From positions 1-48,442 of IMG/VR virus record IMGVR_UViG_3300010413_000055: a stretch of DNA of 48,442 bases. The stretch is one strand, 5' to 3'. How positions within the stretch are numbered: position 1 is the first letter of the stretch; the number at the start of each line of letters is the position of its first letter. Below are positions 13,753 through 30,738 of the stretch, piece by piece. The position numbers and the translations under genes were made by a program. The stretch is from a virus. The notes beneath the pieces are model-generated. The model searched no databases and had not been told where the DNA came from. It saw only the letters and a program-made list of their open reading frames with translations.

Positions 13753-14799
13753 CTAACAAATCACTCCGTAACCAAGAGCGCATAACCGGCATTCTTCCCT
13801 GTCCTTAATATTCTTGCGAAAGTCCCAGCTTTCCTTTGATCGCCACGCTTTCTGTATATCATCCGTATAAGCATTCCCCCAACTAAAAGGTTCGCTCATC
13901 CTCGTTTCCCCCAACATAGAGAACGGTTGCGGTTCTGAGAAAAACACACACGGCATCATCTCTCCATTAGGGTCTATGTATAACGTAGAAGCTAAACCGC
14001 ATCCAACCCTCTCTATCTTTGTGGGTCGTCTTTTAATCCATATCTTGTACTCCCTGCACTTACGCCATGCTTCTATCTGCATGGCATCTATCTCAGGAAC
14101 TCCATCGTAAGAGTACAGGCACTCATCCATGTGCTCGGGTCTGTAGGTATTTATACCGGAGTATTTCAAAGACCATATCCCCAGCTCATGGCACATATCC
14201 GGCATTTTGGTTATCTCATGTTTGTTTTTTTTCTGCATCACCTGGATAGTCCTCACCCTGCCACCCTTGGCTATGAACTCCTTGACGTGCTTTATTATCA
14301 AGTCGAAGTTAGAACCAACCCTTATAGCTTCATGCGTCTCCTTGGTTACTCCATCGAGTGATACACATATGTTAGAAATACCTCTCTTCAGGAGTTCATT
14401 CTGGGTCTTGTCATTCAACAGCATCCCATTGGTTATTATCGTAGGCCATATCCTCGGGTTGTAACTTCTCACCAAGTCCACCATCTTGAAGAAATCTTTA
14501 TGGAAGAACGGTTCAGCAGAACACAGATTCAATACATTACAGGTGTTCCAGAAAGGCTGAAGCCTCTCAGCTAACTTGGCGAACTGCTCAAACGGTATGA
14601 ACCACTTGTCCATCTTCGTGTTGGTTATCCGACACGTAGGACACTGTATGTTGCACCGAGTCATGGTCTCTATTACGATTGTCGTCGGGTAAGGTGCAGC
14701 ATAACACGTAGGCTCAGTAATTTCGTAAGTACACTGGTCTTCCAAGTCCACCACCTCCCCATGTATTTTACCTTGAGTTCCTTGTGCTGTCGCTTCCAT
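13753..14799 (-). CDS. Radical SAM enzyme with C-terminal SPASM/twitch-like Cys cluster
   Basis: CNIQCPTC (CxxxCxxC) near the N-terminus. C-terminal GCGLAS..MPCVFF..ECRLCALGYGVIC. The start is ambiguous: ATG 14799 overlaps the upstream gene by 127 nt, whereas ATG 14664 lies 8 nt after its stop. Confidence 0.8.
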   Translation of the reverse strand: MEATAQGTQGKIHGEVVDLEDQCTYEITEPTCYAAPYPTTIVIETMTRCNIQCPTCRITNTKMDKWFIPFEQFAKLAERLQPFWNTCNVLNLCSAEPFFHKDFFKMVDLVRSYNPRIWPTIITNGMLLNDKTQNELLKRGISNICVSLDGVTKETHEAIRVGSNFDLIIKHVKEFIAKGGRVRTIQVMQKKNKHEITKMPDMCHELGIWSLKYSGINTYRPEHMDECLYSYDGVPEIDAMQIEAWRKCREYKIWIKRRPTKIERVGCGLASTLYIDPNGEMMPCVFFSEPQPFSMLGETRMSEPFSWGNAYTDDIQKAWRSKESWDFRKNIKDREECRLCALGYGVIC

Positions 14800-16295
14800 T
14801 CGGGTGGGTCTACCAGACTGGTAGAATGTTCGTAGATAGGATGCTTATAAACATTGACCGGCAACATACCCACTGTGGCTTTGTCTATCGCCCTGAGTGC
14901 GAACTCCTGGTCTGGTATCCTTGTCGTGGCATCCAGTAAACCAACCTTGGCGAATATGCTTCTCCTGTAAAGAAACCCATTACCGCATGAGCCGTAGTAG
15001 AAAACATCCTCGAACTTCTTACCGTAATCTTTGGGTAGACGTACCTGCCATTCACCCTTACCGCTTATCTTGTGTCCAAGGCATACCAGCAAGTCTATCT
15101 GAGGATTTGCTTCCATGTAACTAACAGCCTGGTCTATTCCATTAGGTATAACGATATCATCATCACAACACTGGAATACATACTTGGCTGTTGACATCAT
15201 CACACCCTTATTGAATGCGTGTGCGGGGCCTGCATCAGGTTCACTCACCACCTTGGTTATTATCTTACCGAAGTTATTGATGACTTCTTTAGTCTTGTCT
15301 GTCGAGCCACCATCAACTACGATAAGTTCATCGTGCTCAGTAACTACGGTCTTTAGATTCTCGAATGCGTTTTGCAGATAGTTCCACCTGTTCTTTGTCC
15401 CAAGTACGAATGATACTCTCTTGGGTAAGTAATCCTGTTCATCTGCCCTGCCGTAAAGTACGAGCTTGTCATATAAAGCCAATGCACCATCCGGTAAGTT
15501 CTTGACTACCTCCATACTCTTGAGTAAGTTCTGTAGGTATTTCCATGCGAAGTCAGGTAGCCATATCTCTTTAGTAAACTCATGGTCGCATCGGTACCTC
15601 ACGCTTCCGTCAGCGAACTGGTCTATCGCTACCCCGTGAGCTTCTGCCTCCTCTACGGTTACAGCCATCATAGCCCTCGTAAGGTGCGCATTGTAGCAAT
15701 CGGTACGGGAACCTTTCTTTGGTAGCAACTGCATCAGCATCATCCTCTCTGAAAGATAGAGAAGAACAGAACCCTCGGTGTGCGGCAATCCATAGAGTTG
15801 ACCGTCCTTGGTTCTACAGAGATGCGATCCTTCCGATATAATCACCTCTGCTCCGTATTCCTTGGCTATACCTATCCAGTATTCTATACCGGCTTTCTCA
15901 AGGAAGTAGGGATACCCAAATGGAGCATCTGCACCATACAGCCTTATCTTCTTAACCCCTAAATGAAGAGCTAAAGCAATCTGGTAACATACGGTGTTGG
16001 TAAAGTACGTTTCCTCCTTACCGAAGGAAGTGAAGTGTTTTTGAACCTCCTCTAAAGGATATTTGATATCTGCGTAGTCGTGAAAGGATACGATAGGGAT
16101 TCCCGGTAGCCTCTCACGATATTTAGGGAGACGTGGCTCGAAGTCGAATATGTAGTCCATTCTCTTTCCTGCACATTCCGGATACGAGCCAACGTCCTTA
16201 ACTCCCCATACTTCCGCATCATGCGGACAATCCCGTTTACTTTCCCCCTTGGCGAGAATTATTATCTCGTCAGGTGCCTTGTTAAAGATTTCCAT
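14673..16295 (-). CDS. Two-domain glycosyltransferase: N-terminal sialyltransferase (GT42)/Maf-DUF115-like domain fused to a C-terminal GT2 (GT-A) domain
   Basis: The C-terminal half has RVSFVLGTKNRWNYL, LIVVDGGSTDKT and CCDDD. The N-terminal half has IIILAKGESK and TNTVCYQIALALHLGVKKIRLYGADA, which resembles the CstII-type SGVYMCAVAIALGYKEIYLSGIDF segment (recalled from memory). Confidence 0.65.
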   Translation of the reverse strand: MEIFNKAPDEIIILAKGESKRDCPHDAEVWGVKDVGSYPECAGKRMDYIFDFEPRLPKYRERLPGIPIVSFHDYADIKYPLEEVQKHFTSFGKEETYFTNTVCYQIALALHLGVKKIRLYGADAPFGYPYFLEKAGIEYWIGIAKEYGAEVIISEGSHLCRTKDGQLYGLPHTEGSVLLYLSERMMLMQLLPKKGSRTDCYNAHLTRAMMAVTVEEAEAHGVAIDQFADGSVRYRCDHEFTKEIWLPDFAWKYLQNLLKSMEVVKNLPDGALALYDKLVLYGRADEQDYLPKRVSFVLGTKNRWNYLQNAFENLKTVVTEHDELIVVDGGSTDKTKEVINNFGKIITKVVSEPDAGPAHAFNKGVMMSTAKYVFQCCDDDIVIPNGIDQAVSYMEANPQIDLLVCLGHKISGKGEWQVRLPKDYGKKFEDVFYYGSCGNGFLYRRSIFAKVGLLDATTRIPDQEFALRAIDKATVGMLPVNVYKHPIYEHSTSLVDPPEWKRQHKELKVKYMGRWWTWKTSVLTKLLSLRVMLHLTRRQS

Positions 16296-16314
16296 TTATC
16301 CCCCTTAATTTTGT

Positions 16315-17025
16315 TTATGTAGCCCACGTACCGGCTAAACTCTGGATGTACCATGCGTTAGAACCAGCACCAAGGATATCTACATAGTCGCCTGCTCTGT
16401 GGGTGGCATCAGTATTGGTGAGCGTAAGATTGCTTGTGGTAGTGCTCAGGCCGCATCCAACAATGGTATCACCTGAATTACAGTGTATGATTACCTCACT
16501 GGTAGAGTCGGCACCAACAGATACGATTTTGTACCTGTACCCGAGAACACTTGCAGGTAGCGTCAGTGAAATATTGTCACCACTCACCTGAACCACCTTG
16601 CCGCTTTCCGATACGGTCAGTGTCGTGTTAGCTGTGATACCTACTGCCGAAGCGTTACCGTGGATAAGCTGGTCGTAATACGATATCTTGCCAGCTACAC
16701 CCAATGCAGATGCACCAGAGATATTACCAGCTACATTGAGAATACCACCAGCAGACACTCCACCCGTAAGTTGTGACGTACCGGATACGGTGAGTGTTCC
16801 TGTGACGGCAGTATTACCATTGACCGTGGTATTACCACCAAGTGTAGATGTACCGGATACCGTCATGTTACCAGCGACAGTCCACGTACCTGAAATACTT
16901 GAGTTTCCGTAGAACGTAGTACCCGTTGCATCAATCTCTAATCGTGGAGTTCCATTGTAGAGTGCTTGCAGGTCATTACTGACAGTATCGTTGTACCAGC
17001 CTCGATGTCTTGAGCTTTTTGCCAT
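16315..17025 (-). CDS. Ser/Thr/Gly/Asn-rich repeat protein, 236 aa (fibre- or head-decoration-like)
   Basis: Tandem degenerate G-T/S-x-T-V-x-G-N repeats; 10 of 17 Asn lie in N-x-S/T; sits between the capsid genes and the glycosyltransferase. Confidence 0.65.
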   Translation of the reverse strand: MAKSSRHRGWYNDTVSNDLQALYNGTPRLEIDATGTTFYGNSSISGTWTVAGNMTVSGTSTLGGNTTVNGNTAVTGTLTVSGTSQLTGGVSAGGILNVAGNISGASALGVAGKISYYDQLIHGNASAVGITANTTLTVSESGKVVQVSGDNISLTLPASVLGYRYKIVSVGADSTSEVIIHCNSGDTIVGCGLSTTTSNLTLTNTDATHRAGDYVDILGAGSNAWYIQSLAGTWAT

Positions 17026-17053: not shown

Positions 17054-17086
17054 GAAAAGAGTGGGTGAGTTTAAGCCCCCACCCAC
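17054..17086 (-). terminator. Rho-independent terminator after the 241-aa gene
   Basis: Minus-strand GTGGGTG-12 nt loop-CACCCAC followed by TCTTTTC. Confidence 0.6.
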
Positions 17087-17096
17087 GGCTTAGTGT

Positions 17097-17822
17097 TTAA
17101 GTAGCTTGCCAGTCTCTTCCGCCCTTAGCCCATCCGTAGTCCACTTCAAAAACCTGCGGGATTCCGTTAAGACGATTCTCTACGCCCATACAGGCATAGA
17201 ACAGGTCTGATGTTACAGTGAGGGTAGAATTAGCATCCATGACAACCCTACCATTAAGGTAAGATGTAACACGTCCGCTAGGGCCTATCTCAACCCTGAT
17301 AACATCCCACTCGTCGGATACTGGGGCTTCATTACCATCGACGGCAGTCACGTTTACCGCACCACCATCTCCGCATACAGCCATCCAGTCAGCAGTAGCC
17401 ATGTCAACATCATAGGCGAGTCCTACCATACCACCCGAACCATTATAGGTAACGGTAGAAGTAGAAATCTCGGCAGGCATCACAGGAGTAGCCGCATTAA
17501 GAGTTTCAGAGAAACCCACAAAGCAGGCTGCGCCAGTGATAGTTGTCATCTTGAGACGTGTTTCCATGTAGGCCCCACCATCAGCGGGTTTGAACGGGCC
17601 GGTGAAGAAGAAGAAGTTGTCTGCGTCAGCGGTGTCGTTAGTAATTGCCTTGATACCACCGGGTTCATCTACGGTATTGTCGATAGAACCCTCGTTTACC
17701 GAGCAGTAGTTCCAACCACCTGTACCTATAGGTGAAGCAACAGTGCCAACAGAAGAGGTGTCAAAGGCAAAGAAATCATCAAATATTTCGATAGTTCCCT
17801 GTGAACCTTGTTCGTAACCCAT
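17097..17822 (-). CDS. Head-associated protein, 241 aa (possible decoration/jelly-roll-type)
   Basis: Immediately downstream of the capsid gene with GGAGGAATAATG RBS; function inferred only from position. Confidence 0.5.
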   Translation of the reverse strand: MGYEQGSQGTIEIFDDFFAFDTSSVGTVASPIGTGGWNYCSVNEGSIDNTVDEPGGIKAITNDTADADNFFFFTGPFKPADGGAYMETRLKMTTITGAACFVGFSETLNAATPVMPAEISTSTVTYNGSGGMVGLAYDVDMATADWMAVCGDGGAVNVTAVDGNEAPVSDEWDVIRVEIGPSGRVTSYLNGRVVMDANSTLTVTSDLFYACMGVENRLNGIPQVFEVDYGWAKGGRDWQAT

Positions 17823-17831
17823 TATTCCTCC

Positions 17832-18704
17832 TTAACTTGTCGGCGCGGTGGCATCACTGAAGATTTCGATACCCCATGTATCAAGTCGTTCGCCATACGC
17901 ATATTCGTCGTAGTGGTAGACGGACGTACCACCGCCGCCTACGTTTTCTTTTCTTACAGCAACCGCCCTCGGTGCTCGACCCTGTACCAGCACAAGAGCC
18001 TCCTGTGCGAATACAGCACCTTTAGCCTGGTTGCCTGAAATTGATATGTTGCCATCCTCATAAAGTTGTACGTTGTTTATCATACCTCGATAACCTTCTT
18101 TAAGGACTCTGGCAGATAAACCTTCAGGTATATTATAAGTTCCAATACCAGCTCTCAGGTCATCCTCGATGTCCTTTAACTGGTAGCCGTGCAGTACACC
18201 TCTATAAGGTGGCTTACCGGGTTCAGTAGCATTACCGGTTATGATACCAACGGCTGCATTAATGTGACCGATCGAGAGAGTTGAAGAACCTGAACCTGGT
18301 ATTGTGTTCGAGAATGAGTCGAACATCGTGATACCGTCTTCGTCTTTCTTTCTCTGGATTGCGTGTTGTGCAAGTGAACCGGTCTGGGCAAATGCAACCT
18401 TGGCGATTCTAGCAGCAACCCTGTCAGTGATAAATGTTTCTATACCTATCACAGTAGGAGTTACTGAGAAGAGTGAGTCCGAAAGCAGTTGCGGGTTATC
18501 CAGTACGGTAGTTTCTGTGATTTCCTGAGCGTTCAGTTTATCAAACTTGACCTCATTCCATGTCAGACCCAGACCCTTACCGAGTGTCTGGTTCTCTACC
18601 AACTGGGGTACAACACCTTCCTGCTCCCTGACCTGCCTTGCGTTCATTATCCAAGTAGGAAGTGAATCAGCAAGGGCATCAGTTGTGGTATTCCCAGCCG
18701 CCAT
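17832..18704 (-). CDS. Major capsid protein (HK97-fold size class)
   Basis: 290 aa directly after a scaffold-like acidic coiled-coil gene; AAGGAG RBS; bracketed by terminators, consistent with high expression. Confidence 0.65.
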   Translation of the reverse strand: MAAGNTTTDALADSLPTWIMNARQVREQEGVVPQLVENQTLGKGLGLTWNEVKFDKLNAQEITETTVLDNPQLLSDSLFSVTPTVIGIETFITDRVAARIAKVAFAQTGSLAQHAIQRKKDEDGITMFDSFSNTIPGSGSSTLSIGHINAAVGIITGNATEPGKPPYRGVLHGYQLKDIEDDLRAGIGTYNIPEGLSARVLKEGYRGMINNVQLYEDGNISISGNQAKGAVFAQEALVLVQGRAPRAVAVRKENVGGGGTSVYHYDEYAYGERLDTWGIEIFSDATAPTS

Positions 18705-19576: not shown

Positions 19577-19723
19577 TTAAGATATCACAACTTCCTTGGG
19601 TATGTCAATATATACTACGTTCTGAGCCTTACATCTTGGGCAGGTGAACTCCACCACGCATTTGCCTAACTGCACAGAAACCAACCACTTATTACATTTC
19701 TTGCATCTTACTTCTACAGACAT
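19577..19723 (-). CDS. Mu Com-like zinc-ribbon protein, 48 aa
   Basis: MSVEVRCKKCNKWLV...VEFTCPRCKAQN parallels Mu Com IRCKNCNKLL...IEIRCPRCK (from memory); start overlaps the NeuA-like stop by 10 nt. Confidence 0.55.
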   Translation of the reverse strand: MSVEVRCKKCNKWLVSVQLGKCVVEFTCPRCKAQNVVYIDIPKEVVIS

Positions 19724-20373
19724 TTATCAGCTATCCATTCGGCTAACACCCAGTCCAACTCATCGTTGATATCGAATCCCTCGTATCCATAGGTAAAGAA
19801 CGGTACTATCTTTAACCCACAGATAGAATTGGATTCTAATACTTGCGTCTTAGCCATCTCCAAACTTGCGTTCTGGACATACACCTCCGGTAGTGTCTGA
19901 TAAGGTTGAGAATGAAGCTTGTTTCCAGTATAGGGTATGATATATTCCCCAACCACAGTCCACATCTTTTCAGGATGTTGCTTGCACTTCTCCACAGCCC
20001 TGATAGAATCGCACTCTGTAGAATTAAATAAGTCATATCCACGTTGTATCGTCTCTGCTGTTCTAAACGGAGAAGTTGGTCTGAGTATAGAAAACGAATC
20101 TTCATTTATCTTCTCCATGATGTGTTTTACCCACTCCACATCTTTAGAGGTATCCTTGGCTATCTCAGGCGGTCTCATCACTACTTCAGCATCATATCTA
20201 TCTGCTATATCCTTGTACTCAATGGAGTCTGTAGATACTATAACCCTTGAGAATACACCACTCTTTATAGCTTCAGTGATTGTATAGGACATCAATGGCT
20301 TACCTTTCAATCGCCTGATGTTCTTATCCTTTATCCTCTGAGAACCTGAACGAGCAGGTATAAGTCCTACCAT
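19714..20373 (-). CDS. Acylneuraminate (nonulosonic acid) cytidylyltransferase family protein (NeuA/PseF/LegF/KdsB-like)
   Basis: N-terminal GLIPARSGSQRIKDKNIRRLKGKPL signature; 219 aa. Confidence 0.8.
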   Translation of the reverse strand: MVGLIPARSGSQRIKDKNIRRLKGKPLMSYTITEAIKSGVFSRVIVSTDSIEYKDIADRYDAEVVMRPPEIAKDTSKDVEWVKHIMEKINEDSFSILRPTSPFRTAETIQRGYDLFNSTECDSIRAVEKCKQHPEKMWTVVGEYIIPYTGNKLHSQPYQTLPEVYVQNASLEMAKTQVLESNSICGLKIVPFFTYGYEGFDINDELDWVLAEWIADKCL

Positions 20374-20588
20374 TCTCCCAAGTCTACTCCTATTTCTTCA
20401 AGAGCGTTTATTATCTCCATAGCCTTTTTACATCTCCGTGTTCCCTGGAATTCGTAGTATCCACATCGTACACCATACGGCCCGCACCATCTCCCTGGTT
20501 CTGTGTACTTAACCTTATGGGTACACAATTTAAGAGCTAACTTATTGTAGATATCGCTCTTAGAAACACTCATCTTCTTTGATATCAC
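20367..20588 (-). CDS. Hypothetical Cys-containing protein of up to 73 aa between the NeuB-like and NeuA-like genes
   Basis: ORF only; start uncertain (ATG 20573 reduces the overlap with the upstream gene). Confidence 0.4.
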   Translation of the reverse strand: MISKKMSVSKSDIYNKLALKLCTHKVKYTEPGRWCGPYGVRCGYYEFQGTRRCKKAMEIINALEEIGVDLGEW

Positions 20589-21549
20589 TCTCTAAAACAG
20601 ACCCTATCAGTTTCGTTATATCGTATGGTTGTATACCACCACCGGGAGATTTAATCGCTATATCATTAATAGTTACATACTCACCTGATTTCATATCCCT
20701 TGAAGCCACCAGACTCTTGCCCATCTTGTATAGTGGTTTTTCCTCTGATGGCAACGGTTTCTTTTCCCTGTCTCCCAATGCTGTCTGTATCCTTGAAAGA
20801 TCTCGTACCATCTTCCTCATACCTTCAGGCTGTAGTGAGAAAGCATTGTCAGTTCCCTTCCATGTATGGTCTAAGGTAAAGTGCTTCTCGAATACCCTTG
20901 CCCCAAGCATATAGGCTATGACTGACATCTCAATACCGTTCTGGTGGTCTGATAATCCTATGGTAGCTTCCTGAAAGATGTTCTTGTAGGTTAATATTAC
21001 ATTGAGGTTCATCTCTTCTACCTTGGTAGGATATGAGGCTGTACATTGAAGTAATGTCACATCGCATCCATGTGCAGCACGATAGGCTCTTGATACATCA
21101 TCTATCGTACCACCACCCGTAGAGATTATGATTGGTTTCCTGAACCTTGCTATATACTCTATGAGGGGGGTGTTGGTTAAATCACCAGATGCTATCTTAA
21201 ACCTTGACACACCTATATCATCAAGGAAGTCTACACTATTGAAGTCGAAAGCTGTTGCGAATAAGTCTATAGATAGGGATCGTGCATATCCCAGTAACGA
21301 CTCATACTCTTCCCAACCGAACTCAAGAAATTCCCTATGCTCGCCATAAGTCTTCCCAAATGAGTTCTCGTTTTCGTAAGGCGAATCGTATAGTTCCCTT
21401 GTATATAGGTTTTTGTTATCCCTTTTTTGTAGCTTAACCGCATCAGCACCACACTCCTTTGCAGCGTAGATTAGGTCTTTAGCTTTCTGTAAATCTCCCC
21501 CGTGGTTTGAACCAATCTCAGCGATTACCTCAAAATCCTTATCCCCCAT
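20560..21549 (-). CDS. Nonulosonic acid synthase family protein (NeuB/PseI/LegI/SpsE-like) with C-terminal SAF domain
   Basis: EIGSNHGGDLQKAKDLIYAAKECGADAVKLQ at the N-terminus; SGEYVTINDIAIKSPGGGI near the C-terminus. Confidence 0.85.
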   Translation of the reverse strand: MGDKDFEVIAEIGSNHGGDLQKAKDLIYAAKECGADAVKLQKRDNKNLYTRELYDSPYENENSFGKTYGEHREFLEFGWEEYESLLGYARSLSIDLFATAFDFNSVDFLDDIGVSRFKIASGDLTNTPLIEYIARFRKPIIISTGGGTIDDVSRAYRAAHGCDVTLLQCTASYPTKVEEMNLNVILTYKNIFQEATIGLSDHQNGIEMSVIAYMLGARVFEKHFTLDHTWKGTDNAFSLQPEGMRKMVRDLSRIQTALGDREKKPLPSEEKPLYKMGKSLVASRDMKSGEYVTINDIAIKSPGGGIQPYDITKLIGSVLESDIKEDECF

Positions 21550-24700: not shown

Positions 24701-24740
24701 TTTCCGGTGATAGTGATTCTATCCGTGATCGTAGGGTCAT
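21702..24740 (-). CDS. Large virion-module protein, 1012 aa (possible minor head / internal ejection protein)
   Basis: Longest ORF; Gly-rich segment GVGSVGKGTGFAGKIGKLGSIG; function not recognised. Confidence 0.6.
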   Translation of the reverse strand: MTLRSRIESLSPENLELFKTQARAKAQAGDPSYSQLVSSQEYADIFGADLQPSQPQQKQWWQTPLEVIGAPFSFVQENVIDPALAMLLSGATPSTQGTEDMGWFERERAEFNAWQTPGINLPWISPFSGEQARVDIKGVIQNLPWLAIPGVGSVGKGTGFAGKIGKLGSIGRVAGTALEFSPWGLTEKGLGQVGKLAGKAAAPLTGRAAANVAKIEDPVMKKLVEAIRAVKPKRAQYNVEKSAELAKRTATAESILEGKTGYEAFQSAKGALAGKYDIPDFEAVFKQFTEEEVGGIFDRINTSPARLFDRLDAADALMDFGTGMRIPTKREVDLVSKVLGKEIGDALRTHRPRSEQALRALLDATGLPKAILSSYDMSAPLRQGAVLVAAHPKSGLKNIGNMIKAFASEKTAVKMEDQLLKRAIYPRAAEAKLYIAPYKQLVGKLAEREEAFMSGLAEKIPGVAMSERAYITFLNKMRMDTFEYYINNWAKNGVKATAEDEKQLARMINILSGRGDLGALSEMRTVLNAGFFSPGFVASRAQTPMLLFTGNPLIRKTAAREIASFVGAGLGILSLASLAGGEVETDPRSTDFGKIKIGNTRLDFWGGFQPYARFVSQLISGERKSATGNIYPIEREDLITRFIRSKESPLAGLLNDIIVGETFIGEELSTTRESILQQARNRLVPMFAQDIWDAVDEQGLFGGFLALPGVLGATVTSYGSEEKDIRQLRDKVAQETYGMDWNSLGMEMGSAAQRTLEQQYPDLQKNWITSEDTLLGRGDAWREYRRKSTHIKEFTQDELLLASAKMKADGNGTEFREKVNEIMSNQRAMYKEMKLDPQFKDIEDTLVGDLTPAELSKMNPLDVARMAYNEMMYAPDLYDQYGEYQFDLAAQRKEQFVRQYGQAALDYVEDFMGLKWQDTPELQDLAMARDALKPYWKAESDVWAQYPPMVKQESDRIAILEQQNPIEGKRALFRSQFGKLIMMARKMVAIEKKRTKMKNPEIAMYLKKYYSY

Positions 24741-25276
24741 TCATCCACCTCATACAGTTCGGCTCTTTCTATTAGAAGATAACTTTTATCATCCTCTAAA
24801 GCCTTCTTATAAGTTTCAAAAATCCCCCTCGGAGAATCGAAGCGTATCACCTCTATATTATTTAACCACATCTTGTAAACACCTGTATAGTCAGATGTGT
24901 GCTGTATACCACCGTCTAACGGTGTCTTTGAACCTACAGAAGTTCTTATTATAACCTTTGGTCTGAAGTCTGATAACTCACATATCTTATCAAGGTGATT
25001 TACCATCTGGTTTGTAGCCAGTATGAGGAAATCAAATCTCGGGTAAATAGTAATAGGTATGAATCCTTCAAGAGAAAGACCTGTACTCATACCCATCTGC
25101 ATATCTTCCGCTATGCCTATCTCTATTCTTTTGTCCATAGGCACGTAACTCAATGTACCGTACATGGCAGAACCTTCATATGCAACAGTCTGCCCCAGAA
25201 AGATAGTCCTTTCATCAAGACCAAGATATGTCATTGACCTAATTATCTCTTCTTTATAGTTCAAAAGTTCACCCAT
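24737..25276 (-). CDS. TPP-enzyme beta-like subunit (transketolase pyrimidine-binding / E1-beta-like), shortened
   Basis: LGLDERTIFLGQTV..EGSAMYG..RIEIGIAEDMQMGMSTGLSLEG pattern; start moved to ATG 25276. Confidence 0.55.
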   Translation of the reverse strand: MGELLNYKEEIIRSMTYLGLDERTIFLGQTVAYEGSAMYGTLSYVPMDKRIEIGIAEDMQMGMSTGLSLEGFIPITIYPRFDFLILATNQMVNHLDKICELSDFRPKVIIRTSVGSKTPLDGGIQHTSDYTGVYKMWLNNIEVIRFDSPRGIFETYKKALEDDKSYLLIERAELYEVDE

Positions 25277-25815
25277 GTTCCAGTGCCATGATGAGGAAAT
25301 GTTCTCTCGTAAGTATACCTCCACACCCTATCCGTAGGTGTGTAACATCCGATACCATTGTCTTCTACTACGAATGTTATTTGTAAATCTTCGCCCTTAG
25401 CATACTTGTTACACTCATGGAAAATACCCATTTCAGAAGCCATGTCTCCAACGAATACCCATACATGACTCCTGCCGTTCTTTAATCTGTTCCCAAGTGC
25501 TACCCCCAATGCAATAGGCAGGACACCTCCAACGATTGAAGATGTTATGAATCTGTGCTCTGGTGAATTGATGTGCATACTCTTGTTCTTTAGTATCTCG
25601 TTCTTCAACCATTCTCTATCTACTCCTTTTAGAAGCGCATGGTAGTGATTCCTGTGGGTTGAGAATACCCAGTCTTCTTCCTTGATATGAGAGAATAAAT
25701 ATATAAGCTCATCCTCGTTTCCACCCGAAAGATGTACGGGAGAATGAATCTTACCAGCCTCATATAACTCGACTATCTCTGTCTCGAACATTATCAATGA
25801 TTCTGCATTCAACAA
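25261..25815 (-). CDS. TPP-binding E1-alpha-like subunit, shortened (184 aa)
   Basis: GDMASEMGIFHECNKYAKGEDLQITFVVEDNGIG aligns by eye with the GDGA..G...E..N.A....P.IF..ENN.YG TPP-binding motif. Confidence 0.65.
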   Translation of the reverse strand: MLNAESLIMFETEIVELYEAGKIHSPVHLSGGNEDELIYLFSHIKEEDWVFSTHRNHYHALLKGVDREWLKNEILKNKSMHINSPEHRFITSSIVGGVLPIALGVALGNRLKNGRSHVWVFVGDMASEMGIFHECNKYAKGEDLQITFVVEDNGIGCYTPTDRVWRYTYERTFPHHGTGTWVNF

Positions 25816-25945
25816 AATATATCTTCTTCCTTTGCTGCCTTGTTACCCTACCGCACTTCTTGCATCTGTGTACATAGTAAAAGAATTCACCGTCATCTTC
25901 TTCCCATGATTCATCTTCACCACCACATTTAGTTGCGTGATTCAT
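25760..25945 (-). CDS. Possible 61-aa zinc-ribbon ORF overlapping both neighbours
   Basis: HATKCGG...CKKCG; overlaps the kinase end by 17 nt and the E1-alpha-like start by 56 nt, so doubtful. Confidence 0.3.
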   Translation of the reverse strand: MNHATKCGGEDESWEEDDGEFFYYVHRCKKCGRVTRQQRKKIYFVECRIIDNVRDRDSRVI

Positions 25946-26738
25946 ATATTATTTTACTACCTTCCTTATCAAACCTGAAGTCTATCACACTTAGTCTTAG
26001 AGCATCAGATACCTTTGTCCTATCATCTGGATTTACCACGAATACCATGAACCCACCGCCTCCACCACCTAACAGCTTACCACCTAAAGCACCAGCCTCC
26101 AAGGCTATTCTGTAATACTCATCAACCTTATTAGTAGATACATCATCAGACAAGTTTCTTTTTAATCTCCATGCTGTATGAAGAGCATTACCGAAATCTA
26201 CGGGATCGTCGTAATCCTGAAGAGCTAAATCCTTGAGTTCATGTAACGTCTTCAGATTCCTGTCCATCCTGTCTAACTGATGCCGTATTATCACACCACC
26301 CTGACGATAGATACCGGTATCAACCAACATGAGATATGGTTCAAGCCAGTCATAGTCAAGTTCCTCTTCCACCACACCACTACCATAGAACCTTAATCTC
26401 TTGAATCCCCCCACAGCACAGATATACTGGTCTTGATAACCACAGGCACCACCACGTTCTTTCAACTCTAACCCTGTGGCTAACGCAGCAGTTTCTTTAC
26501 CACCCATTCTATGAGAAGCAGTGAATAACCCAACGGCAAAAGCACTAGAAGTACCCATACCACTGCCAGAAGGTAACTCATCATGTGACCATACCTCCCC
26601 GCTACGGCTTATACCTACATAGCAGTATTTATCTATGGCGGTAGTTATGACGCAACCACCATACCTTGAGAAATAGTCTTCGTAGTCTGACCCTCCACCA
26701 AGTAAAGATATCCGGTACGGTGTCCTTGTAACCAGCAT
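25929..26738 (-). CDS. GHMP sugar kinase (HddA-like heptose-phosphate kinase type)
   Basis: MLVTRTPYRISLLGGGSD N-terminus; PSGSGMGTSSA (motif II); LLGGGGGGFM (motif III). Confidence 0.8.
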   Translation of the reverse strand: MLVTRTPYRISLLGGGSDYEDYFSRYGGCVITTAIDKYCYVGISRSGEVWSHDELPSGSGMGTSSAFAVGLFTASHRMGGKETAALATGLELKERGGACGYQDQYICAVGGFKRLRFYGSGVVEEELDYDWLEPYLMLVDTGIYRQGGVIIRHQLDRMDRNLKTLHELKDLALQDYDDPVDFGNALHTAWRLKRNLSDDVSTNKVDEYYRIALEAGALGGKLLGGGGGGFMVFVVNPDDRTKVSDALRLSVIDFRFDKEGSKIIYESRN

Positions 26739-27072
26739 GACTTTTACTTAACCTCACTACATCTTCTTCTGAATGCGGTGTCGATACCTCTATTATAACC
26801 GAATCCGCAAATCCGTAAATCGAATGCTTCTCCCCAGGCATGATAGTCTTCGGTGATGCCATCTGATGCAAATCATATTTCTTATCCTCAACTATAAGTA
26901 ATACTTCACCTTCTATGCACCAGAATGTTTCCTTCTTTTCCTTATGATAGTGATAACTTCCCTGCGCACCTTCGGCTATCTCCAATAACTTGCAACAGTA
27001 ACTTTCATTGTTTACAAGCCATATCTCCTGCCCCCATACCTTAGGGACTATCTTAATCTTTTCTTTTATCAC
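26629..27072 (-). CDS. Cupin-domain protein (sugar isomerase/epimerase-like)
   Basis: KVWGQEIWL...GSYHYHKEKKETFWCIEGEVLL...PGEKHSI. The last ~35 aa overlap the kinase gene in another frame and look non-native. Confidence 0.6.
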   Translation of the reverse strand: MIKEKIKIVPKVWGQEIWLVNNESYCCKLLEIAEGAQGSYHYHKEKKETFWCIEGEVLLIVEDKKYDLHQMASPKTIMPGEKHSIYGFADSVIIEVSTPHSEEDVVRLSKSHAGYKDTVPDIFTWWRVRLRRLFLKVWWLRHNYRHR

Positions 27073-27589
27073 CTGCGTACTCTTTTACAAATGCGTCTCG
27101 TTCACTCAACAGGTAATTATCTACTGGAATGTATAGGTTGAAATCCTCCATGTTGAAAGTTCTCTGGTCAGGATTGCTATTGTTGAAGTATTGGTCTTGT
27201 AAGTAATGGAAGATGGCGTAATCTGACAGGACAAGAAACCCACTCCCGTAGCGTGGATGTTTGTATATCTGCCATCGGTTTCTGTCGTTAAGCGGAAAAC
27301 TCTCCCACTTTCCAAATTCCTCATCCTCCTCATCACAGTTTACTACGTAGTATATCATCGAACCATAGAGACATTGATTCAGTTTCCAGCAGTGAGGTGA
27401 GTAATGTATACCCCTGAATACGTTTTTAATCGACGTTGAGATGTCATGCTCTACAGGATGGAAGTCAGGGAAGTGAGCGTTGAACTCTCTTTCGTTGTAC
27501 GTCATCACGTACTCACCACGCCAGTCGTGATTTATCTCAGGCTTGATTATATAGACATCTTTTAAGGTTGTGCTTTGTACCATTCCCAT
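27053..27589 (-). CDS. RmlC-like NDP-4-keto-6-deoxy-sugar 3,5-epimerase
   Basis: DWRGEYV, NVFRGIHYS, KLNQCLYGSMIYYVV, YGSGFLVLSDYAIFHY. Confidence 0.75.
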   Translation of the reverse strand: MGMVQSTTLKDVYIIKPEINHDWRGEYVMTYNEREFNAHFPDFHPVEHDISTSIKNVFRGIHYSPHCWKLNQCLYGSMIYYVVNCDEEDEEFGKWESFPLNDRNRWQIYKHPRYGSGFLVLSDYAIFHYLQDQYFNNSNPDQRTFNMEDFNLYIPVDNYLLSERDAFVKEYAGDKRKD

Positions 27590-28359
27590 GTTTTCTTTAT
27601 CCCCTCTTCTAGTGGTGTATAATCGAATGAAACTGGTTTATCAGATAAGCGTCCAGTTGATAATTCGCGTTTATTTAATTCAATAGTAAAATCTGATAAT
27701 TTTTTCATAATATTGGCTACGTCTAAAGTTGACATCAAGCTAGCTCCAATATTAAAATTACCTTTCCAACTACGCATCAAATCTACGCATATATTAGCCA
27801 CATCTTCACTATAAGTAAAATCTCTAATATCTCCACCAGTTCCTATATTTATCTTTTTATCACCACGTTTAACTTTAGCCATCAGAGCAGGTATGAACAT
27901 ACCGTCATCGGGATCAAAGTTATCATACTCTCCGTAGACTGAGTTTGGTCTTATCACTACCCAGTTATCAAATCCATATTGTATCTTGTATGCTTCAAGT
28001 TGTTTCTCTCCAGCCTCCTTGGCAAAACCTGGATATTTGTCATGTAATACCGCGGTGGAACTTACATAGAGAATCTTCTTAACACCATTCAATCGTGCTG
28101 CCTCAAGTATGTTTGTATTCATCTGTAGCATCGGTACGAAGAAATCAGCGGGTCGCTCTCTTGTCATCTTACCTGAACCCTTGACTCCTGCTACGTGATA
28201 GAGTTGGTCTACTCCTTTAGTGAATTCCTTACACAGATTGAAGTCTGTTAAGTCCTGCCCTGTTTTCTTATCGGCTTTGATTAACTCGCACGTTCCTTCA
28301 AGTAAGTCACATACCTTGTGACCTATCATACCTTCCGAACCAGTTACTAAAACTTTCAT
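27562..28359 (-). CDS. NAD(P)-dependent epimerase/reductase (extended SDR; 4-keto reductase candidate)
   Basis: MKVLVTGSEGMIGHK Rossmann motif; 265 aa; adjacent to the epimerase and dehydratase. Confidence 0.7.
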   Translation of the reverse strand: MKVLVTGSEGMIGHKVCDLLEGTCELIKADKKTGQDLTDFNLCKEFTKGVDQLYHVAGVKGSGKMTRERPADFFVPMLQMNTNILEAARLNGVKKILYVSSTAVLHDKYPGFAKEAGEKQLEAYKIQYGFDNWVVIRPNSVYGEYDNFDPDDGMFIPALMAKVKRGDKKINIGTGGDIRDFTYSEDVANICVDLMRSWKGNFNIGASLMSTLDVANIMKKLSDFTIELNKRELSTGRLSDKPVSFDYTPLEEGIKKTWEWYKAQP

Positions 28360-28577
28360 AAAACAGTTTCCTCATAAATTGATGCTAAAAATATTGATGG
28401 GATAAAGAATATTGATAATGGAATTATAATAAAAAGAAGGTAATAGGTATTGTTATTACACATAGTTACTATCAGATAGGCTGTTGTATATATATATATT
28501 AGTAACATAGCGAGATACCATATGTTGATTTTATTTCGTTTCTTTATCCCCATAAATGTATCTGGAAATACTTTCAT
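28356..28577 (-). CDS. 73-aa two-helix membrane mini-protein, very AT-rich gene
   Basis: IWYLAMLLIYIYTTAYLIV and YYLLFIIIPLSIFFIPSIFLASI; ATGA coupling on both sides. Confidence 0.5.
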   Translation of the reverse strand: MKVFPDTFMGIKKRNKINIWYLAMLLIYIYTTAYLIVTMCNNNTYYLLFIIIPLSIFFIPSIFLASIYEETVL

Positions 28578-29515
28578 ACTCTCCCCCTCCAGTAATTGAG
28601 TGTATCCTCAAGTGTCTGCGAGAATGGTATCTCTGGTTTCCACCCAGTCTGCTTTGTGAACTTGTCTATACATGGTATCTGCATCGTTACATCAGTTGGT
28701 CGAAGCCTATCAGTATTCATTTCACAGTTAAATACGTGCGTTGAAAGTGAACATAGTTTATCAAGCATCTCGCATATAGTCATTGACTCAACACCACCTA
28801 TGTTATAAACTTCACCAGCAGGACAATCCCATAACTTGTGGTACGCCCTAACAGCATCTTTAACGTCGAGCCATGTTCTCACTGAATCGAGATTGCCATG
28901 CTCTAAGACTTCACGTTTACCTTTTTCTATCTCCGCTATCTGCTTTGCAAAGTTAGACATGACGAATACTTCACCCCTGCGCGGGCCGGTATGAGTGAAC
29001 ATCCTTGTGACAATAGTTCTCATCCCATAGTTCTCGTAGTAGAGCCTGCCAAGCATATCCTCCCCAACCTTACTCACAGCATAAGGACTTACGGGATTCA
29101 ACGGACACTCTTCTGTTATCGGTATATCCTCGGGACGTACTTTTCCGTATACCTCACTCGATGAGCAGATGTGTATGATTGGGTCGAGTTCCAGCCATCT
29201 TACAGACTCCAGTAGATTAGATGTTCCTATGATATTATTATCGTAAGTTACATTAGGTGCTGTTGTGGAGAATGGTACGTAAGACTGTGCAGCTAGATGG
29301 TGTATCACATCAGGTTTATGTTTCTTTAGAATATAGTCAAGTGAACTCCTGTCAAGCAAATCACCATACTCAAGATTCAGGTCTTTCTCTATGTGTGCGA
29401 TGTTTTCTCTATTAGACCTGACACGCACTATACCTACGATATCTGCTTTATCCAACAGATACTCGGCTAACCATGAGCCTACGAACCCCGTGATACCAGT
29501 GATAAGAACCTTCAC
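28574..29515 (-). CDS. NDP-sugar 4,6-dehydratase (GDP-mannose/GDP-heptose 4,6-dehydratase-like SDR)
   Basis: TGITGFVGSWL, SSSEVYG, YAVSKVGED (YxxxK), FTHTGPRRGEVFV, GNLDSVRTWLDVKD. Confidence 0.8.
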   Translation of the reverse strand: MKVLITGITGFVGSWLAEYLLDKADIVGIVRVRSNRENIAHIEKDLNLEYGDLLDRSSLDYILKKHKPDVIHHLAAQSYVPFSTTAPNVTYDNNIIGTSNLLESVRWLELDPIIHICSSSEVYGKVRPEDIPITEECPLNPVSPYAVSKVGEDMLGRLYYENYGMRTIVTRMFTHTGPRRGEVFVMSNFAKQIAEIEKGKREVLEHGNLDSVRTWLDVKDAVRAYHKLWDCPAGEVYNIGGVESMTICEMLDKLCSLSTHVFNCEMNTDRLRPTDVTMQIPCIDKFTKQTGWKPEIPFSQTLEDTLNYWRGRV

Positions 29516-30738
29516 ATTACCCCCTTTATCACATTGATTACATTCTCTACTGCATCCCCGTTAGGTCTGATATACCTCTTTACCCACGCCCGCCTTGCTT
29601 CTATATTGTCATCCTGCCCACGCACCAGCTTGACTATCTCATTCAGACATTCCTCCGGTTTATGGACGAGTATCATACCATCCATCATACTCCTGTAGTG
29701 CATGGTATCTAACTGAGTCCTTTTACTGCCAAGCATCACTGGTGAAATAACAGCCTTGTCATTTATCATGGCATCTATCATAGCAGAGTTATTCAAACCA
29801 ATCACGCCAACTGAGTGGTATAAGGTATCATAGAATAACTGAATAGACTCTTTACTGCCAGGAGTTTTCCCGAACGACTTGTAGACATTGGGCGCATCAT
29901 AGATAGTGTATATCTTCCTGTTAGCCTGATGAGGTCTTAAAAGTATGTTTATATCGAGACTCTTCGCTATCCCATTCAAGATATAGGTTTCGTCCTTTCT
30001 GATATTGGACGACGATCCCAGATAAACAATGTATGGCTTATCCTCCATACCCATGCCTTCAAGGAACTCTTTTCTGTCTGTTGGTTTATTATGTCCCCAT
30101 ATCTCGAACCTTGCAGCACCAGTGAGTTCTATCCTGTCTTTAGGTACGCCGTGAATATTCATCAATATATCAATCTGCTCTTCATTCCATGCGCATACTT
30201 TATCAGGCATGATATGAAACGTACCCTTCGTTGTTAGGTTATCCCAGCTTAACACTATCGCTACCGTGGGACACTTCGCAGCTTTTAAGTATTCCTGCTC
30301 CTCTGAATATCTCAACGTGTTTCCACTAACTACGAGTACGTCAGGATTCTTTTCTTTCAACCAGTCTTTAACCTTTTTGTCCTGAGGTACTATCTTCTCA
30401 AATAGTTTTATGGAAGTCCTGAGCAAATCACTCTTGAATATCTTGTCACCTATCTCCATGTCGATAAGTTTCCTCTGGAATGGTGTGAGGTATTTATACC
30501 ACCTGTTAGTGTAATAGTCAGACTGCTCTTTCATCCTAAGATAGTTCGAGTAGTTATATAGCTCCCTTGCTTTGAAAATAGAGTCTCGCCACTTATCGTT
30601 ACGCCTTGGGAAATACTCGATACCGTCTATCTCATTGTCTCGACTCCAGCCGATATCGTAGTAGACATCTCCCGGGAACCTGTCTATGAGTGGTTGCATT
30701 ATAAATCTATGGTTTGTCGTTCGTAGCAGATAAATCAC
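29512..30738 (-). CDS. Putative GT-B-like glycosyl/phosphoglycosyl transferase, family unresolved
   Basis: Two-lobe layout (DVLVVSGNT... / PYIVYLGSSSNI...ILLRPHQ) within the sugar block; weak recognition only. Confidence 0.4.
   Translation of the reverse strand: MIYLLRTTNHRFIMQPLIDRFPGDVYYDIGWSRDNEIDGIEYFPRRNDKWRDSIFKARELYNYSNYLRMKEQSDYYTNRWYKYLTPFQRKLIDMEIGDKIFKSDLLRTSIKLFEKIVPQDKKVKDWLKEKNPDVLVVSGNTLRYSEEQEYLKAAKCPTVAIVLSWDNLTTKGTFHIMPDKVCAWNEEQIDILMNIHGVPKDRIELTGAARFEIWGHNKPTDRKEFLEGMGMEDKPYIVYLGSSSNIRKDETYILNGIAKSLDINILLRPHQANRKIYTIYDAPNVYKSFGKTPGSKESIQLFYDTLYHSVGVIGLNNSAMIDAMINDKAVISPVMLGSKRTQLDTMHYRSMMDGMILVHKPEECLNEIVKLVRGQDDNIEARRAWVKRYIRPNGDAVENVINVIKGVM

Follow-up and report, generated by a model that had tools for sequence, protein, structure and literature searches.

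A predicted bifunctional glycosyltransferase with a minimal GT42-like domain, encoded in the head module of a novel tailed phage

The window analysed here, the whole 48,442 nucleotides of IMG/VR virus record IMGVR_UViG_3300010413_000055, encodes on its minus strand (14673..16295) a 540-aa protein which consists of a GT42-like N-terminal domain (N-domain), a middle domain and a GT2 C-terminal domain. We give about an even chance to the explanation that this protein is a soluble bifunctional transferase which builds a nonulosonic-acid-capped O-glycan on the surface proteins of the virion. The enzyme would act in the cytoplasm, and its gene lies in the head-morphogenesis operon of a novel, uncultivated tailed phage. 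The GT2 domain probably transfers a hexose-type sugar from an NDP-sugar donor, and the N-domain would then cap this product with a nonulosonic (sialic-acid-like) sugar, which the phage NeuB would make and the phage CMP-synthetase would activate. The acceptors are most likely Ser/Thr residues of virion surface proteins from the same operon, either directly or through a sugar that they already carry, with the fibre protein encoded 19 nt upstream (p236), the 241-aa protein p241 and the capsid protein as candidates. The location of the enzyme among head genes, beside a spike-like fibre and sugar-synthesis genes, suggests that the phage decorates its own virion with sugars of this kind.

The GT2 (GT-A fold) domain is formed by residues 293-540 (14673..15419, minus strand) and ends in a basic amphipathic tail. 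Residues 295-451 matched PF00535 in Pfam with an E-value of 1.7e-18 (67.5 bits vs the gathering cut-off of 23.3), which bore out the GT2 half that an earlier note on this DNA had claimed. The DDD (DxD) motif of the domain is located in 'QCCDDDIV'. NCBIfam returned generic GT2 matches alone, all of them sub-threshold, and the sequence matches in the PDB were generic GT-A enzymes, including GalT1 (5hea), TarP (6h1j) and GmaR. In addition to CCDDD, the ORF contains LIVVDGGSTDKT and, at residues 99-124, TNTVCYQIALALHLGVKKIRLYGADA. The middle region (residues 173-292; 15420..15779, minus strand) had no match in the Pfam and PDB searches, and it is conserved among the fusion proteins, being kept in the related contigs L009 (fusion 55% identical over the full length) and L011 (tblastn E 8e-19). 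The equivalent domain architecture was found in P0040 (532 aa), P0163 (538 aa) and P0069 (618 aa). The protein is predicted to be soluble, with no hydrophobic segment of transmembrane grade (maximum 19-aa Kyte-Doolittle value 0.94).

Profile homology and the predicted fold identify the N-terminal half as GT42/CstII-like. This domain (residues 1-172; 15780..16295, minus strand) is a minimal single-Rossmann domain and a putative CMP-nonulosonic-acid transferase. Its family contains 5,095 clusters at 50% identity and is invisible to Pfam models, including that of CST-I, and the single sequence found nothing in Pfam or the PDB. A profile of 24 family members matched GT42 chains exclusively in the PDB, and a profile of 149 members matched CstII (E 6.4e-8), Cst-I (1.8e-5) and 9c08 (0.018), with nothing else below E 0.4. 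Alignment of residues 8-132 with CstII 1-164 by hhalign gave a probability of 94% and an E-value of 1.1e-7. The AF2 model of residues 1-172 (pLDDT 87.3, pTM 0.86) was matched best in the PDB by CstII (1ro8/1ro7, E 6.7e-5) and then by Cst-I in Foldseek, with TMq of 0.59-0.61. The earlier note had likened this half to both GT42 sialyltransferases and DUF115 Maf proteins and had proposed a fold comparison with CstII, Maf and MptE. The GT42 likeness held, with CstII and Cst-I at the top of that comparison and Maf and MptE lower. The Maf likeness was weaker: Maf 5mu5 ranked 32nd (E 0.035, TMq 0.54), and PF01973 (MptE-like, Maf/DUF115) had no match to the query at E <= 10. By the model, the core fold would be common to Maf/DUF115 and MptE, and the kinship to them more distant than that to GT42.

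Residues G121, D123 and Y130 of the N-domain align with G152, D154 and the phosphate-binding Y162 of CstII. Among the 149 members, G121 is invariant (149/149), position 130 is Tyr in 127, and position 123 is Asp in 84 and Asn in 35, while the counterpart of CstII Tyr156 is a non-conserved position. The alignment ends at CstII residue 164, so that the CstII lid (approximately 155-188) and the catalytic His188 have no alignable counterpart, and the corresponding segment of the family holds no conserved His. Conserved in place of His188 are a family-specific H/D/E at position 53, K/R134 and E138, which together with E28, T-N-T at 99-101, D/N123 and Y130 make up the strongly conserved polar residues of the family. 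In the wider reading tentatively proposed below, the catalytic arrangement of the N-domain would differ from the His188 mechanism of CstII. The query itself departs from the consensus of its family (N33K, H53E, E129P), and these departures, like the missing lid and His188, are points against that explanation.

The missing lid and His188 would also fit an N-domain that is not a glycosyltransferase at all but a divergent Rossmann domain of the MptE, thiamine-pyrophosphokinase or SteA kind with another nucleotide-dependent activity, or a non-catalytic binding module which targets the GT2 domain. Foldseek also gave thiamine pyrophosphokinases, SteA and MptE-type HPPK at E-values of 6e-4 to 3e-3 (MptE-HPPK 8sd5 at 2.9e-3), one of 24 family members reached the Pfam MptE-like model PF01973 (E 0.039), and sialic-acid-type genes are absent near many members. 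Nevertheless, the significant profile matches were GT42 chains alone, with no kinase among them, and CstII/Cst-I had the highest TM-scores (0.59-0.61 vs 0.41-0.50). The strong conservation of polar residues in 149 members would argue for catalysis, and the domain occurs repeatedly beside NeuB and CMP-synthetase genes. We therefore consider a non-transferase N-domain distinctly improbable.

One member of the N-domain family is fused to an N6/N4 DNA methylase, and the sole isolate-phage homologue, from a Microcystis phage, adjoins the terminase gene; both are points against the preferred explanation, and they favour a transferase that hypermodifies phage DNA with sugars against restriction. To our knowledge, no nonulosonic acid occurs on DNA. 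The window ORFs that were scanned gave no thymidylate-synthase-like hydroxymethylase and no further gene for base modification, and the transferase gene lies in the head module, not in the replication module. DNA modification is thus very improbable here, even though DNA is a common substrate of phage glycosyltransferases (Pyle et al. 2024, as cited in PMC12619734).

For a soluble transferase acting on the virion, the donor may come from the same late operon. The NeuA and NeuB genes named in the earlier note were recovered by Pfam as a CMP-nonulosonic acid synthetase (cytidylyltransferase; 19714..20373, minus strand; PF02348 E 1.3e-26) and a NeuB-family nonulosonic acid synthase with an SAF domain (20560..21549, minus strand; PF03102 E 1.3e-77, full-length profile), both in the same strand block as the transferase gene. 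The best NCBIfam matches, PseF for the synthetase (120 bits) and NeuB_NnaB (300 bits) and PseI (247 bits) for NeuB, were below cut-off, and neither protein matched a PHROG family. This neighbourhood, in the window and in several related loci, makes CMP-nonulosonic acid the putative donor of the N-domain. A nucleotide-sugar module (24737..29515, minus strand) is a possible source of the GT2 donor; it encodes a split TPP enzyme, an HddA-like kinase, an RmlC-like epimerase, an Fcl-like reductase and a GDP-mannose-4,6-dehydratase-like enzyme, all identified by Pfam and NCBIfam below equivalog cut-offs. A 408-aa protein (29512..30738, minus strand), which partially matches the BFO_1060 family (NCBIfam NF046086, E 1.6e-8, 34 bits vs a cut-off of 200), is a further candidate for a nonulosonic-acid transferase, and the presence of this second candidate in the window is a point against the preferred explanation. 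A radical SAM/SPASM enzyme (13753..14799, minus strand; PF04055 and PF13186), whose gene directly follows and overlaps the transferase gene, may have a role in sugar or protein modification.

Homologues of the N-domain, stand-alone or fused, adjoin NeuB, CMP-synthetase or a full Pse/Leg-type pathway in L001, L002/L003, L009, L011, L012, L015, L018, L023 and L055. In the wider set, NeuB or CMP-synthetase lies within 10 kb in only about 10 of 80 IMG/VR loci, and the majority of the family must therefore obtain its donor in some other way, which also counts against the preferred explanation. In the contexts examined in detail, five metagenome contigs (L001, L002, L004, L005, L006) and two fusion contigs (L009, L011), the transferase gene lies 1-4 genes past the capsid gene and ahead of the adaptor/tail genes, and about 31 of 80 IMG/VR loci have a recognisable capsid gene 1-3 kb upstream of the N-domain homologue.

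This location bears on whether the enzyme instead remodels host envelope glycans (LPS/LOS core, capsule or lipid-linked intermediates), in the manner of CstII on lipooligosaccharide, with a block of superinfection or the keeping of progeny off cell debris as possible purposes. The GT42 enzymes of known function act on lipooligosaccharide, judging by PDB entry names, and many GT2 relatives use lipid-linked or polysaccharide acceptors. The basic, amphipathic C-terminal tail of the 540-aa protein would suit such a role, and the phage encodes a beta-helix tailspike, a type common in polysaccharide-recognising phages. In contrast, the transferase gene sits inside the late head operon, in the capsid-to-tail interval, in unrelated phage lineages; seroconversion cassettes are not usually found there. 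In addition, the ORFs scanned contained no transmembrane segment, flippase, GtrA/B-like partner or integrase. Host-glycan remodelling is an unlikely explanation on these grounds, though one to be taken seriously.

If the virion is the target, the candidate acceptors are encoded just ahead of the transferase. Having no Pfam or PHROG match, the probable major capsid protein (290 aa; 17832..18704, minus strand) was assigned from the place of its gene and from its homologues, the post-scaffold proteins in related contigs (79% identity to L009_294; 29%, E 4e-27, to L001_286). Directly after the capsid gene comes p241 (241 aa; 17097..17822, minus strand), a conserved protein which is probably a capsid accessory or decoration protein and an alternative acceptor. 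L009 carries two paralogues of p241 (42-45% identity), the genes that follow the capsid gene in L002 and L005 are weakly similar to it, and Pfam, PHROG and the PDB gave no match. The second gene after the capsid gene encodes p236 (236 aa; 16315..17025, minus strand), a capsid-spike/head-fibre-like protein by AF2/Foldseek and family alignment. The earlier note had placed this gene downstream of the transferase gene; it lies immediately upstream (5'), 19 nt away, because both genes are on the minus strand.

The p236 protein consists of an N-terminal beta module of about 38 aa, 14 hexad repeats (35-118) and a C-terminal beta domain (127-236). In its AF2 model (pLDDT 83.8), the best PDB match by Foldseek was the capsid spike of phage Pa223 (9ny6_C, E 6.8e-6), with tail-fibre-like proteins also among the fold matches, and the C-terminal domain is common to P0173 and P0174, whose N-termini are Phage_cement_2 / phrog_122 head decoration. 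The fold match and the cement-protein C-domain agree with the earlier description of p236 as a surface fibre or decoration protein. From the model, p236 appears to be built like a trimeric capsid spike, and it would accordingly form trimers and bind the capsid. The Pa223 spike gp52 (PDB 9ny6; bioRxiv 10.1101/2025.06.11.659172) likewise has three parts, with a short attachment module at the N-terminus, a fibre shaft made of repeats and a beta knob at the C-terminus. The two proteins share no sequence similarity, and their TM-score is low (0.34), which is due to the use of a monomer model for a trimeric fibre. Glycosylation of gp52 is unreported, as 'glycos' is absent from the main text of the Pa223 paper.

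Sequons are abundant in p236, and the counts given earlier were reproduced exactly: 10 of its 17 Asn lie in N-x-S/T (positions 12, 24, 41, 53, 65, 101, 124, 133, 151 and 199), and Ser+Thr amount to 26.3%. Composition-preserving shuffles gave 4.4 +/- 1.7 sequons (P = 0.003), and the 11 other window proteins tested had no enrichment. The six sequons outside the repeat also exceeded the expectation of 2.3 (P = 0.012). Such numbers would favour N-glycosylation of p236 at these sites, as the earlier note had allowed. However, four of the sequons fall at positions 1-3 of the 6/12-residue repeat [N/T]-x-[T/S]-[V/L]-x-G (residues 35-118) and are by-products of this hexad. The orthologue in a related contig (41-47% identity) has 8 Asn and 2 sequons, and N124 is the only one of the ten that it keeps; the enrichment is specific to this one p236. 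In the window ORFs that were scanned, Pfam and NCBIfam detected no enzyme of the STT3/PglB or HMW1C/NGT type, and we know of no Asn-transferase in GT2 or GT42. Since phages assemble in the cytoplasm and PglB-type transfer takes place in the periplasm, N-glycosylation of p236 is to be counted as hardly probable at all, and O-linkage on p236, p241 or the capsid protein would be the preferred form.

The order p241 - p236 - fusion - radical SAM is kept in L009 (radical SAM enzyme 54% identical), the one close relative in which transferase and p236 are adjacent. A p236 homologue follows the capsid gene in L010 with no transferase nearby, and no p236 homologue occurs near most transferase homologues; both are points against the preferred explanation. 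In the wider family, the transferase gene comes after the major capsid gene and non-homologous small proteins, so that what is conserved beside it is the capsid gene rather than a homologue of p236. The pairing of this enzyme with p236 as its substrate, suggested in the earlier note, is a candidate one. We tentatively propose, as something possible but short of probable, that this previously unrecognised minimal GT42-like family, with at least 5,000 clusters at 50% identity and no Pfam model that detects it, comprises widespread, dedicated virion-glycosylating enzymes in the head modules of uncultivated tailed phages, and that the member described here 'sialylates' capsid spikes with phage-made CMP-nonulosonic acid. 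If so, no phage before this one would have been known to encode a pathway for covering its particle with sialic-acid-like sugars.

Among known systems, Tanf_01245 / BFO_1060 of Tannerella forsythia cap a protein O-glycan with a CMP-activated Pse/Leg derivative as its terminal sugar (PMC5420450). BFO_1060 belongs to a GT-B/TagB-like family unrelated to the GT42-like domain, and the 408-aa ORF of the window is its partial match. Mycobacteriophages offer a precedent, in that their capsid and tail-tube subunits are glycosylated by phage-encoded glycosyltransferases (Freeman et al. 2023, Cell Host Microbe, summarised in PMC12619734). According to that summary, their glycosyltransferase genes likewise lie near structural genes and the capsid/tail glycans modify the virion surface; it mentions no nonulosonic acid or GT42-like enzyme. 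Unlike them, as far as that summary goes, the phage described here also encodes the sugar biosynthesis genes NeuB and CMP-synthetase.

The Maf flagellin Pse/Leg transferases (DUF115/MptE-like, PDB 5mu5) appear to resemble the N-domain in the core fold and in the mechanism proposed for it, in which a CMP-nonulosonic acid would be transferred in the cytoplasm to Ser/Thr of a surface filament protein before assembly. Maf proteins are about 600 aa long with extra flanking domains, which the phage N-domain does not have, and the structural match is much weaker than that of CstII (E 0.035), with no significant PF01973 match. The closest likeness is to CstII / Cst-I, the GT42 enzymes of Campylobacter jejuni (PDB 1ro7, 1ro8, 2p2v), which also consist of a single Rossmann-like nucleotide-sugar domain and are also tied to CMP-sialic-acid-type donor genes. 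The N-terminal strand-loop 'vIIxGxGxS ... P-x-D-x-[DE]-V-[FW]' and the helix-strand motif 'YMxAxAxxxGYxxIxLxGxD...Y' align between them and the N-domain. The N-domain, with about 170 aa vs about 260 aa in CstII, is about 90 residues shorter. Its family, unlike CstII, is phage-borne and located in the head module, and here it is fused to a GT2 domain. The acceptor of CstII is lipooligosaccharide, whereas that of the phage enzyme is probably protein.

The similarity of the N-terminal domain of the 540-aa transferase to GT42 sialyltransferases was visible only through family profiles, since the single sequence matched nothing in Pfam, PHROGs, NCBIfam, or the PDB. A word-indexed search with residues 1 to ~172 found 23 homologues, all of them stand-alone proteins of 160-306 aa without a Pfam domain, and an exhaustive profile search gave a family of 5,095 clusters (50% identity) at E <= 1e-3 and 4,258 at E <= 1e-10. 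When a 24-sequence profile was compared with the PDB, nine chains were matched at E <= 10, all of which were GT42 sialyltransferases. A 149-sequence profile matched CstII (E 6.4e-8) and Cst-I (1.8e-5) of Campylobacter jejuni, as well as a lipooligosaccharide alpha-2,3-sialyltransferase (9c08, 0.018), with nothing else below E 0.4. In hhalign, for which the CstII sequence was checked against the PDB, residues 8-132 were aligned to CstII 1-164 with 94% probability (E 1.1e-7). Among PDB structures, the AlphaFold model of the domain (pLDDT 87.3, pTM 0.86) was most similar to CstII and Cst-I (E 6.7e-5, TMq 0.59-0.61); thiamine pyrophosphokinases, SteA, and MptE-type HPPK came next, and the flagellin nonulosonic-acid transferase Maf stood further down (E 0.035). 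The profile, hhalign, and structural matches showed that the earlier note, which had called this half GT42- or Maf-like from a motif and proposed comparison with the CstII, Maf, and MptE folds, guessed correctly, and the family is closer to GT42 than to Maf/DUF115. We regard the domain as GT42-like in both homology and fold with high confidence.

Compared with CstII, the domain is about 90 residues shorter, and the alignment ends ahead of the lid and the catalytic His188 of CstII. Residues G152, D154, and Y162 of CstII correspond to G121, D123, and Y130 of the N-domain. In addition to these, the family conserves P24, E28, W30, N33, F50, H/D/E53, the T-N-T loop at 99-101, K/R134, E138, W140, S157, and Y168-G169. 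Nearly all of the family-conserved residues are present in the query and its fusion-type relatives, which carry K33, E53, and P129 in place of the N, H, and E of most members. The residue H/D/E53 aligns beside N51 in the acceptor site of CstII and, judged from the alignment, may serve as the catalytic base, with E138 as an alternative candidate. The lack of an alignable His188, together with a fold shared with pyrophosphokinases, suggested that the N-domain might have a role other than glycosyl transfer, but its sequence matches are exclusively to GT42 enzymes and its polar residues are conserved. That the 540-aa protein is an active CMP-sugar transferase is, in our view, reasonably likely.

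The C-terminal half is a GT2 domain, as the earlier note had recognized: residues 295-451 matched Pfam GT2 with an E of 1.7e-18 and contained the DDD motif. The NCBIfam matches of this half were generic GT2 models at sub-threshold scores only, and its sequence neighbours in the PDB were ordinary GT-A enzymes. The same arrangement of N-domain, middle region, and GT2 domain recurs in the homologues P0040 (532 aa), P0163 (538 aa), and P0069 (618 aa). No transmembrane-grade hydrophobic stretch was found in the 540-aa protein, so that it is predicted to be soluble and cytoplasmic, and a membrane-embedded enzyme was rejected.

Searching the GenBank phages with the N-domain by tblastn gave no match, while the family consensus found one homologue in an isolate, Microcystis phage Mvi-Yong1342-1 (PP496355.1; locus L008, 11908-12711), where the gene adjoins the small terminase gene and not the capsid gene. 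The annotation of this homologue as a type 11 methyltransferase was regarded as unsupported. In another family member, P0129 (501 aa), the fusion partner is an N6/N4 DNA methylase domain. The methylase fusion and the terminase-adjacent homologue weakly suggested that the transferase glycosylates DNA, but this was rejected because no base-hydroxymethylase was found among the window ORFs scanned and the gene lies in the head module.

The window is a complete metagenomic contig from a tailed phage, and its 48,442 bp equal the longest contig in the cluster of the 236-aa protein. All genes between ~4.3 and 40 kb of the window are on the minus strand. Transcription order begins with the terminase large subunit (35394-37019), followed by a block of sugar genes (24.7-32.5 kb), a 1,012-aa portal-like protein (21702-24740), NeuB (20560-21549), a CMP-sugar synthetase (19714-20373), a scaffold-like protein, a 290-aa capsid-like protein, the 241-aa protein p241 (17097-17822), the 236-aa protein p236 (16315-17025), the 540-aa transferase (14673-16295), and a radical SAM/SPASM enzyme (13753-14799), with the tail genes, including a beta-helix tailspike, in the last position. 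The open reading frames, motifs, and residue counts of the earlier note were all reproduced, except that the p236 gene, which had been placed downstream of the transferase, lies 19 nt upstream of it, both genes being on the minus strand. Megablast of the region against GenBank phages gave no match, and no close relative was found among them. The proteins labelled capsid, scaffold, and portal had no PHROG or Pfam match, so these labels were assigned from gene order and from homologues in related contigs.

Several features of this region were also observed. The 1,012-aa portal-like protein matched no family and shared 33% identity with a 1,068-aa protein of the related contig L001; a 596-aa ORF directly after the terminase (33635-35425, minus strand), also without a family match, could be the true portal instead. 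A 562-aa protein (4933-6621, minus strand) with right-handed beta-helix/NosD repeats and a weak tailspike PHROG match is probably a polysaccharide-recognising or -degrading tailspike. A 202-aa protein of the head-tail region (12509-13117, minus strand) had a weak C-terminal match to a C2H2-type zinc finger (E 0.005). Between the p241 and p236 genes lies a terminator-like hairpin (17061-17086, minus strand) with a 9-bp stem (6 GC pairs) and a T-rich tail, which might lower the expression of the spike-like protein and the enzymes relative to the capsid genes; terminator-like sites in the scanned region were no commoner than in shuffled sequences. The radical SAM/SPASM gene, whose product may modify a sugar or a protein, shares at least 72 nt with the 3' end of the transferase gene, and its alternative GTG starts at 14751/14754 have a GGAGG-like site ahead. 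This gene is kept downstream of the fusion in L009, the closest relative, and two radical SAM genes adjoin NeuB in L002.

Comparison with related loci showed how the family is placed. In L001, whose portal and capsid proteins are 33% and 29% identical to those of the window, two N-domain paralogues (10001-10735 and 18844-19470) flank a complete Pse/Leg-type pathway consisting of an acetyltransferase, a dehydratase/epimerase, NeuB, a cytidylyltransferase, a GFO/IDH oxidoreductase, and a DegT aminotransferase. In L002 and L003, the homologue is followed by NeuB, a cytidylyltransferase-methyltransferase fusion, and two radical SAM enzymes. In L009 (capsid 79% and fusion protein 55% identical), the gene order is kept: the cytidylyltransferase is followed by the scaffold, the capsid, two p241 paralogues, the p236 orthologue, the fusion, and the radical SAM enzyme. 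In the HK97-type phage L011, the capsid gene is followed by three small proteins and then the fusion, with a cytidylyltransferase ahead of the terminase. The P22-like L004, L005, and L006 have no NeuB nearby, and their transferase gene lies 1-4 genes past the capsid gene, before the adaptor/tail genes. Of 80 IMG/VR loci, 5 had NeuB and ~8 a cytidylyltransferase within 10 kb, and ~31 had a recognisable capsid gene 1-3 kb upstream. Since NeuB accompanies few loci and the capsid gene is near also where NeuB is missing, the link of the family to nonulosonic-acid genes is real but lineage-specific, and the link to the capsid gene is the general one.

The protein encoded directly before the transferase, p236, contains a beta module of ~38 residues at its N-terminus, fourteen copies of the hexad [N/T]-x-[T/S]-[V/L]-x-G at residues 35-118, with repeat periods of 6 and 12 residues, and a C-terminal beta domain at residues 127-236. 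The first homologue search returned p236 alone, and a two-sequence profile was needed. With this, the C-terminal domain was found in proteins with N-terminal Pfam Phage_cement_2 or PHROG 'head decoration' domains, and in short proteins encoded right after the capsid gene with no transferase nearby (L010). In the PDB, the AlphaFold model (pLDDT 83.8) came closest to a capsid spike, that of Pseudomonas phage Pa223 (E 6.8e-6), followed by T4 gp9/gp10-type and tailspike N-terminal modules, while the BFVD matches were tail-fibre and Mtd-type proteins. The Pa223 spike, gp52, is a trimer anchored at the capsid three-fold axes, and its three-part plan is common to p236. From the cement-protein context, the post-capsid genes, and the Pa223 match with its shared plan, a capsid spike or head fibre is the best reading of p236, with a tail fibre as the alternative. 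The neighbouring p241 matched nothing in Pfam, PHROG, or PDB sequences; it is duplicated in tandem in L009 (3028-4530), shows weak similarity to post-capsid proteins of L002 and L005, and is probably a capsid accessory protein.

The suggestion of the earlier note that p236 is a surface fibre or decoration protein agreed with the capsid-spike reading, but N-glycosylation at the sequons, one of the two kinds of glycosylation it had allowed for, was not supported. Of the 17 Asn residues in p236, 10 lie in N-x-S/T, against 4.4 +/- 1.7 sequons in shuffled sequences (P = 0.003), and none of 11 other window proteins tested showed such enrichment. The L009 orthologue (41-47% identical), however, has 8 Asn and 2 sequons, with only N124 kept, and 4 of the 10 sequons in p236 are by-products of the hexad repeat; we conclude from these comparisons that the excess is not under conserved selection. 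N-glycosylation at these sites was rejected because the sequons are not conserved and the corresponding transferase was not found in the ORFs scanned, and Asn-linked glycosylation is highly improbable. The Ser/Thr richness of p236 (26.3%) was kept in the orthologue (22%).

The window NeuB and cytidylyltransferase matched no PHROG family, and its NeuB/LegI-like, PseI, and PseF-like cytidylyltransferase scores all fell short of the equivalog cut-offs. The window has a second glycan module, located between the terminase and the portal-like protein (24737-32540, minus strand), with a split TPP enzyme (E1/transketolase-like), an HddA-like heptose-7-phosphate kinase, an RmlC-like 3,5-epimerase, an Fcl-like reductase, a GDP-mannose-4,6-dehydratase-like enzyme, and a weak STELLO-like glycosyltransferase; these matches, all below equivalog cut-offs, suggest a GDP-6-deoxyheptose or deoxyhexose pathway. 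Within the module, a 408-aa ORF (29512-30738, minus strand) partially matched the 'BFO_1060 family glycosyltransferase' model of NCBIfam, with an E of 1.6e-8 and 34 bits where the cut-off is 200; this family comprises the pseudaminic/legionaminic-acid transferases of Tannerella forsythia (PMC5420450). With such a pathway and such a relative, the glycan may be larger than a GT2 sugar and its cap, and the 408-aa ORF is a second candidate nonulosonic-acid transferase of the phage, a candidate competitor of the GT42-like domain for the capping role.

Phage heads assemble in the cytoplasm, so any glycosylation of the virion would have to proceed stepwise by soluble nucleotide-sugar transferases, as Maf modifies flagellins. 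By the same route, mycobacteriophage transferases modify capsid and tail-tube subunits (Freeman et al. 2023, summary in PMC12619734). The soluble fusion of GT2 and GT42-like domains would fit this route: co-transcribed with the Ser/Thr-rich, capsid-spike-like p236 in a phage predicted to make its own CMP-nonulosonic acid, it could add a sugar through the GT2 domain and cap that sugar with nonulosonic acid through the GT42-like domain. Remodelling of the host envelope by the transferase is possible, given that known GT42 enzymes act on lipooligosaccharide, but the gene keeps its place in the head module and no membrane partners were found among the ORFs scanned, both of which speak against this reading. 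We give a virion protein an even chance of being the acceptor; p236 specifically, paired with the enzyme as the earlier note proposed, is a doubtful choice.

If these results are confirmed, a very large family of hypothetical phage proteins would gain a function, and a compact sialyltransferase-like scaffold (~170 aa) that is interesting for glycoengineering would be defined. The results would also imply that phages can cloak their capsids with sialic-acid-like sugars, with a bearing on adsorption, particle stability, animal immune and lectin recognition, and therapeutic phage design. To our knowledge, the documented cases of phage-encoded virion glycosylation come chiefly from mycobacteriophages, and no precedent was found in the literature searched for a phage making nonulosonic acid and attaching it to its own virion. 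The components, namely GT2, the GT42-like fold, the capsid spike, NeuB, and the CMP-sugar synthetase, are known in kind. What is new is that phages carry a very large family of minimal GT42-like domains that is unannotated and lacks the canonical catalytic histidine. Also new are the systematic position of this family behind the capsid gene and, in the lineage of the window, its combination with phage-encoded nonulosonic-acid synthesis.
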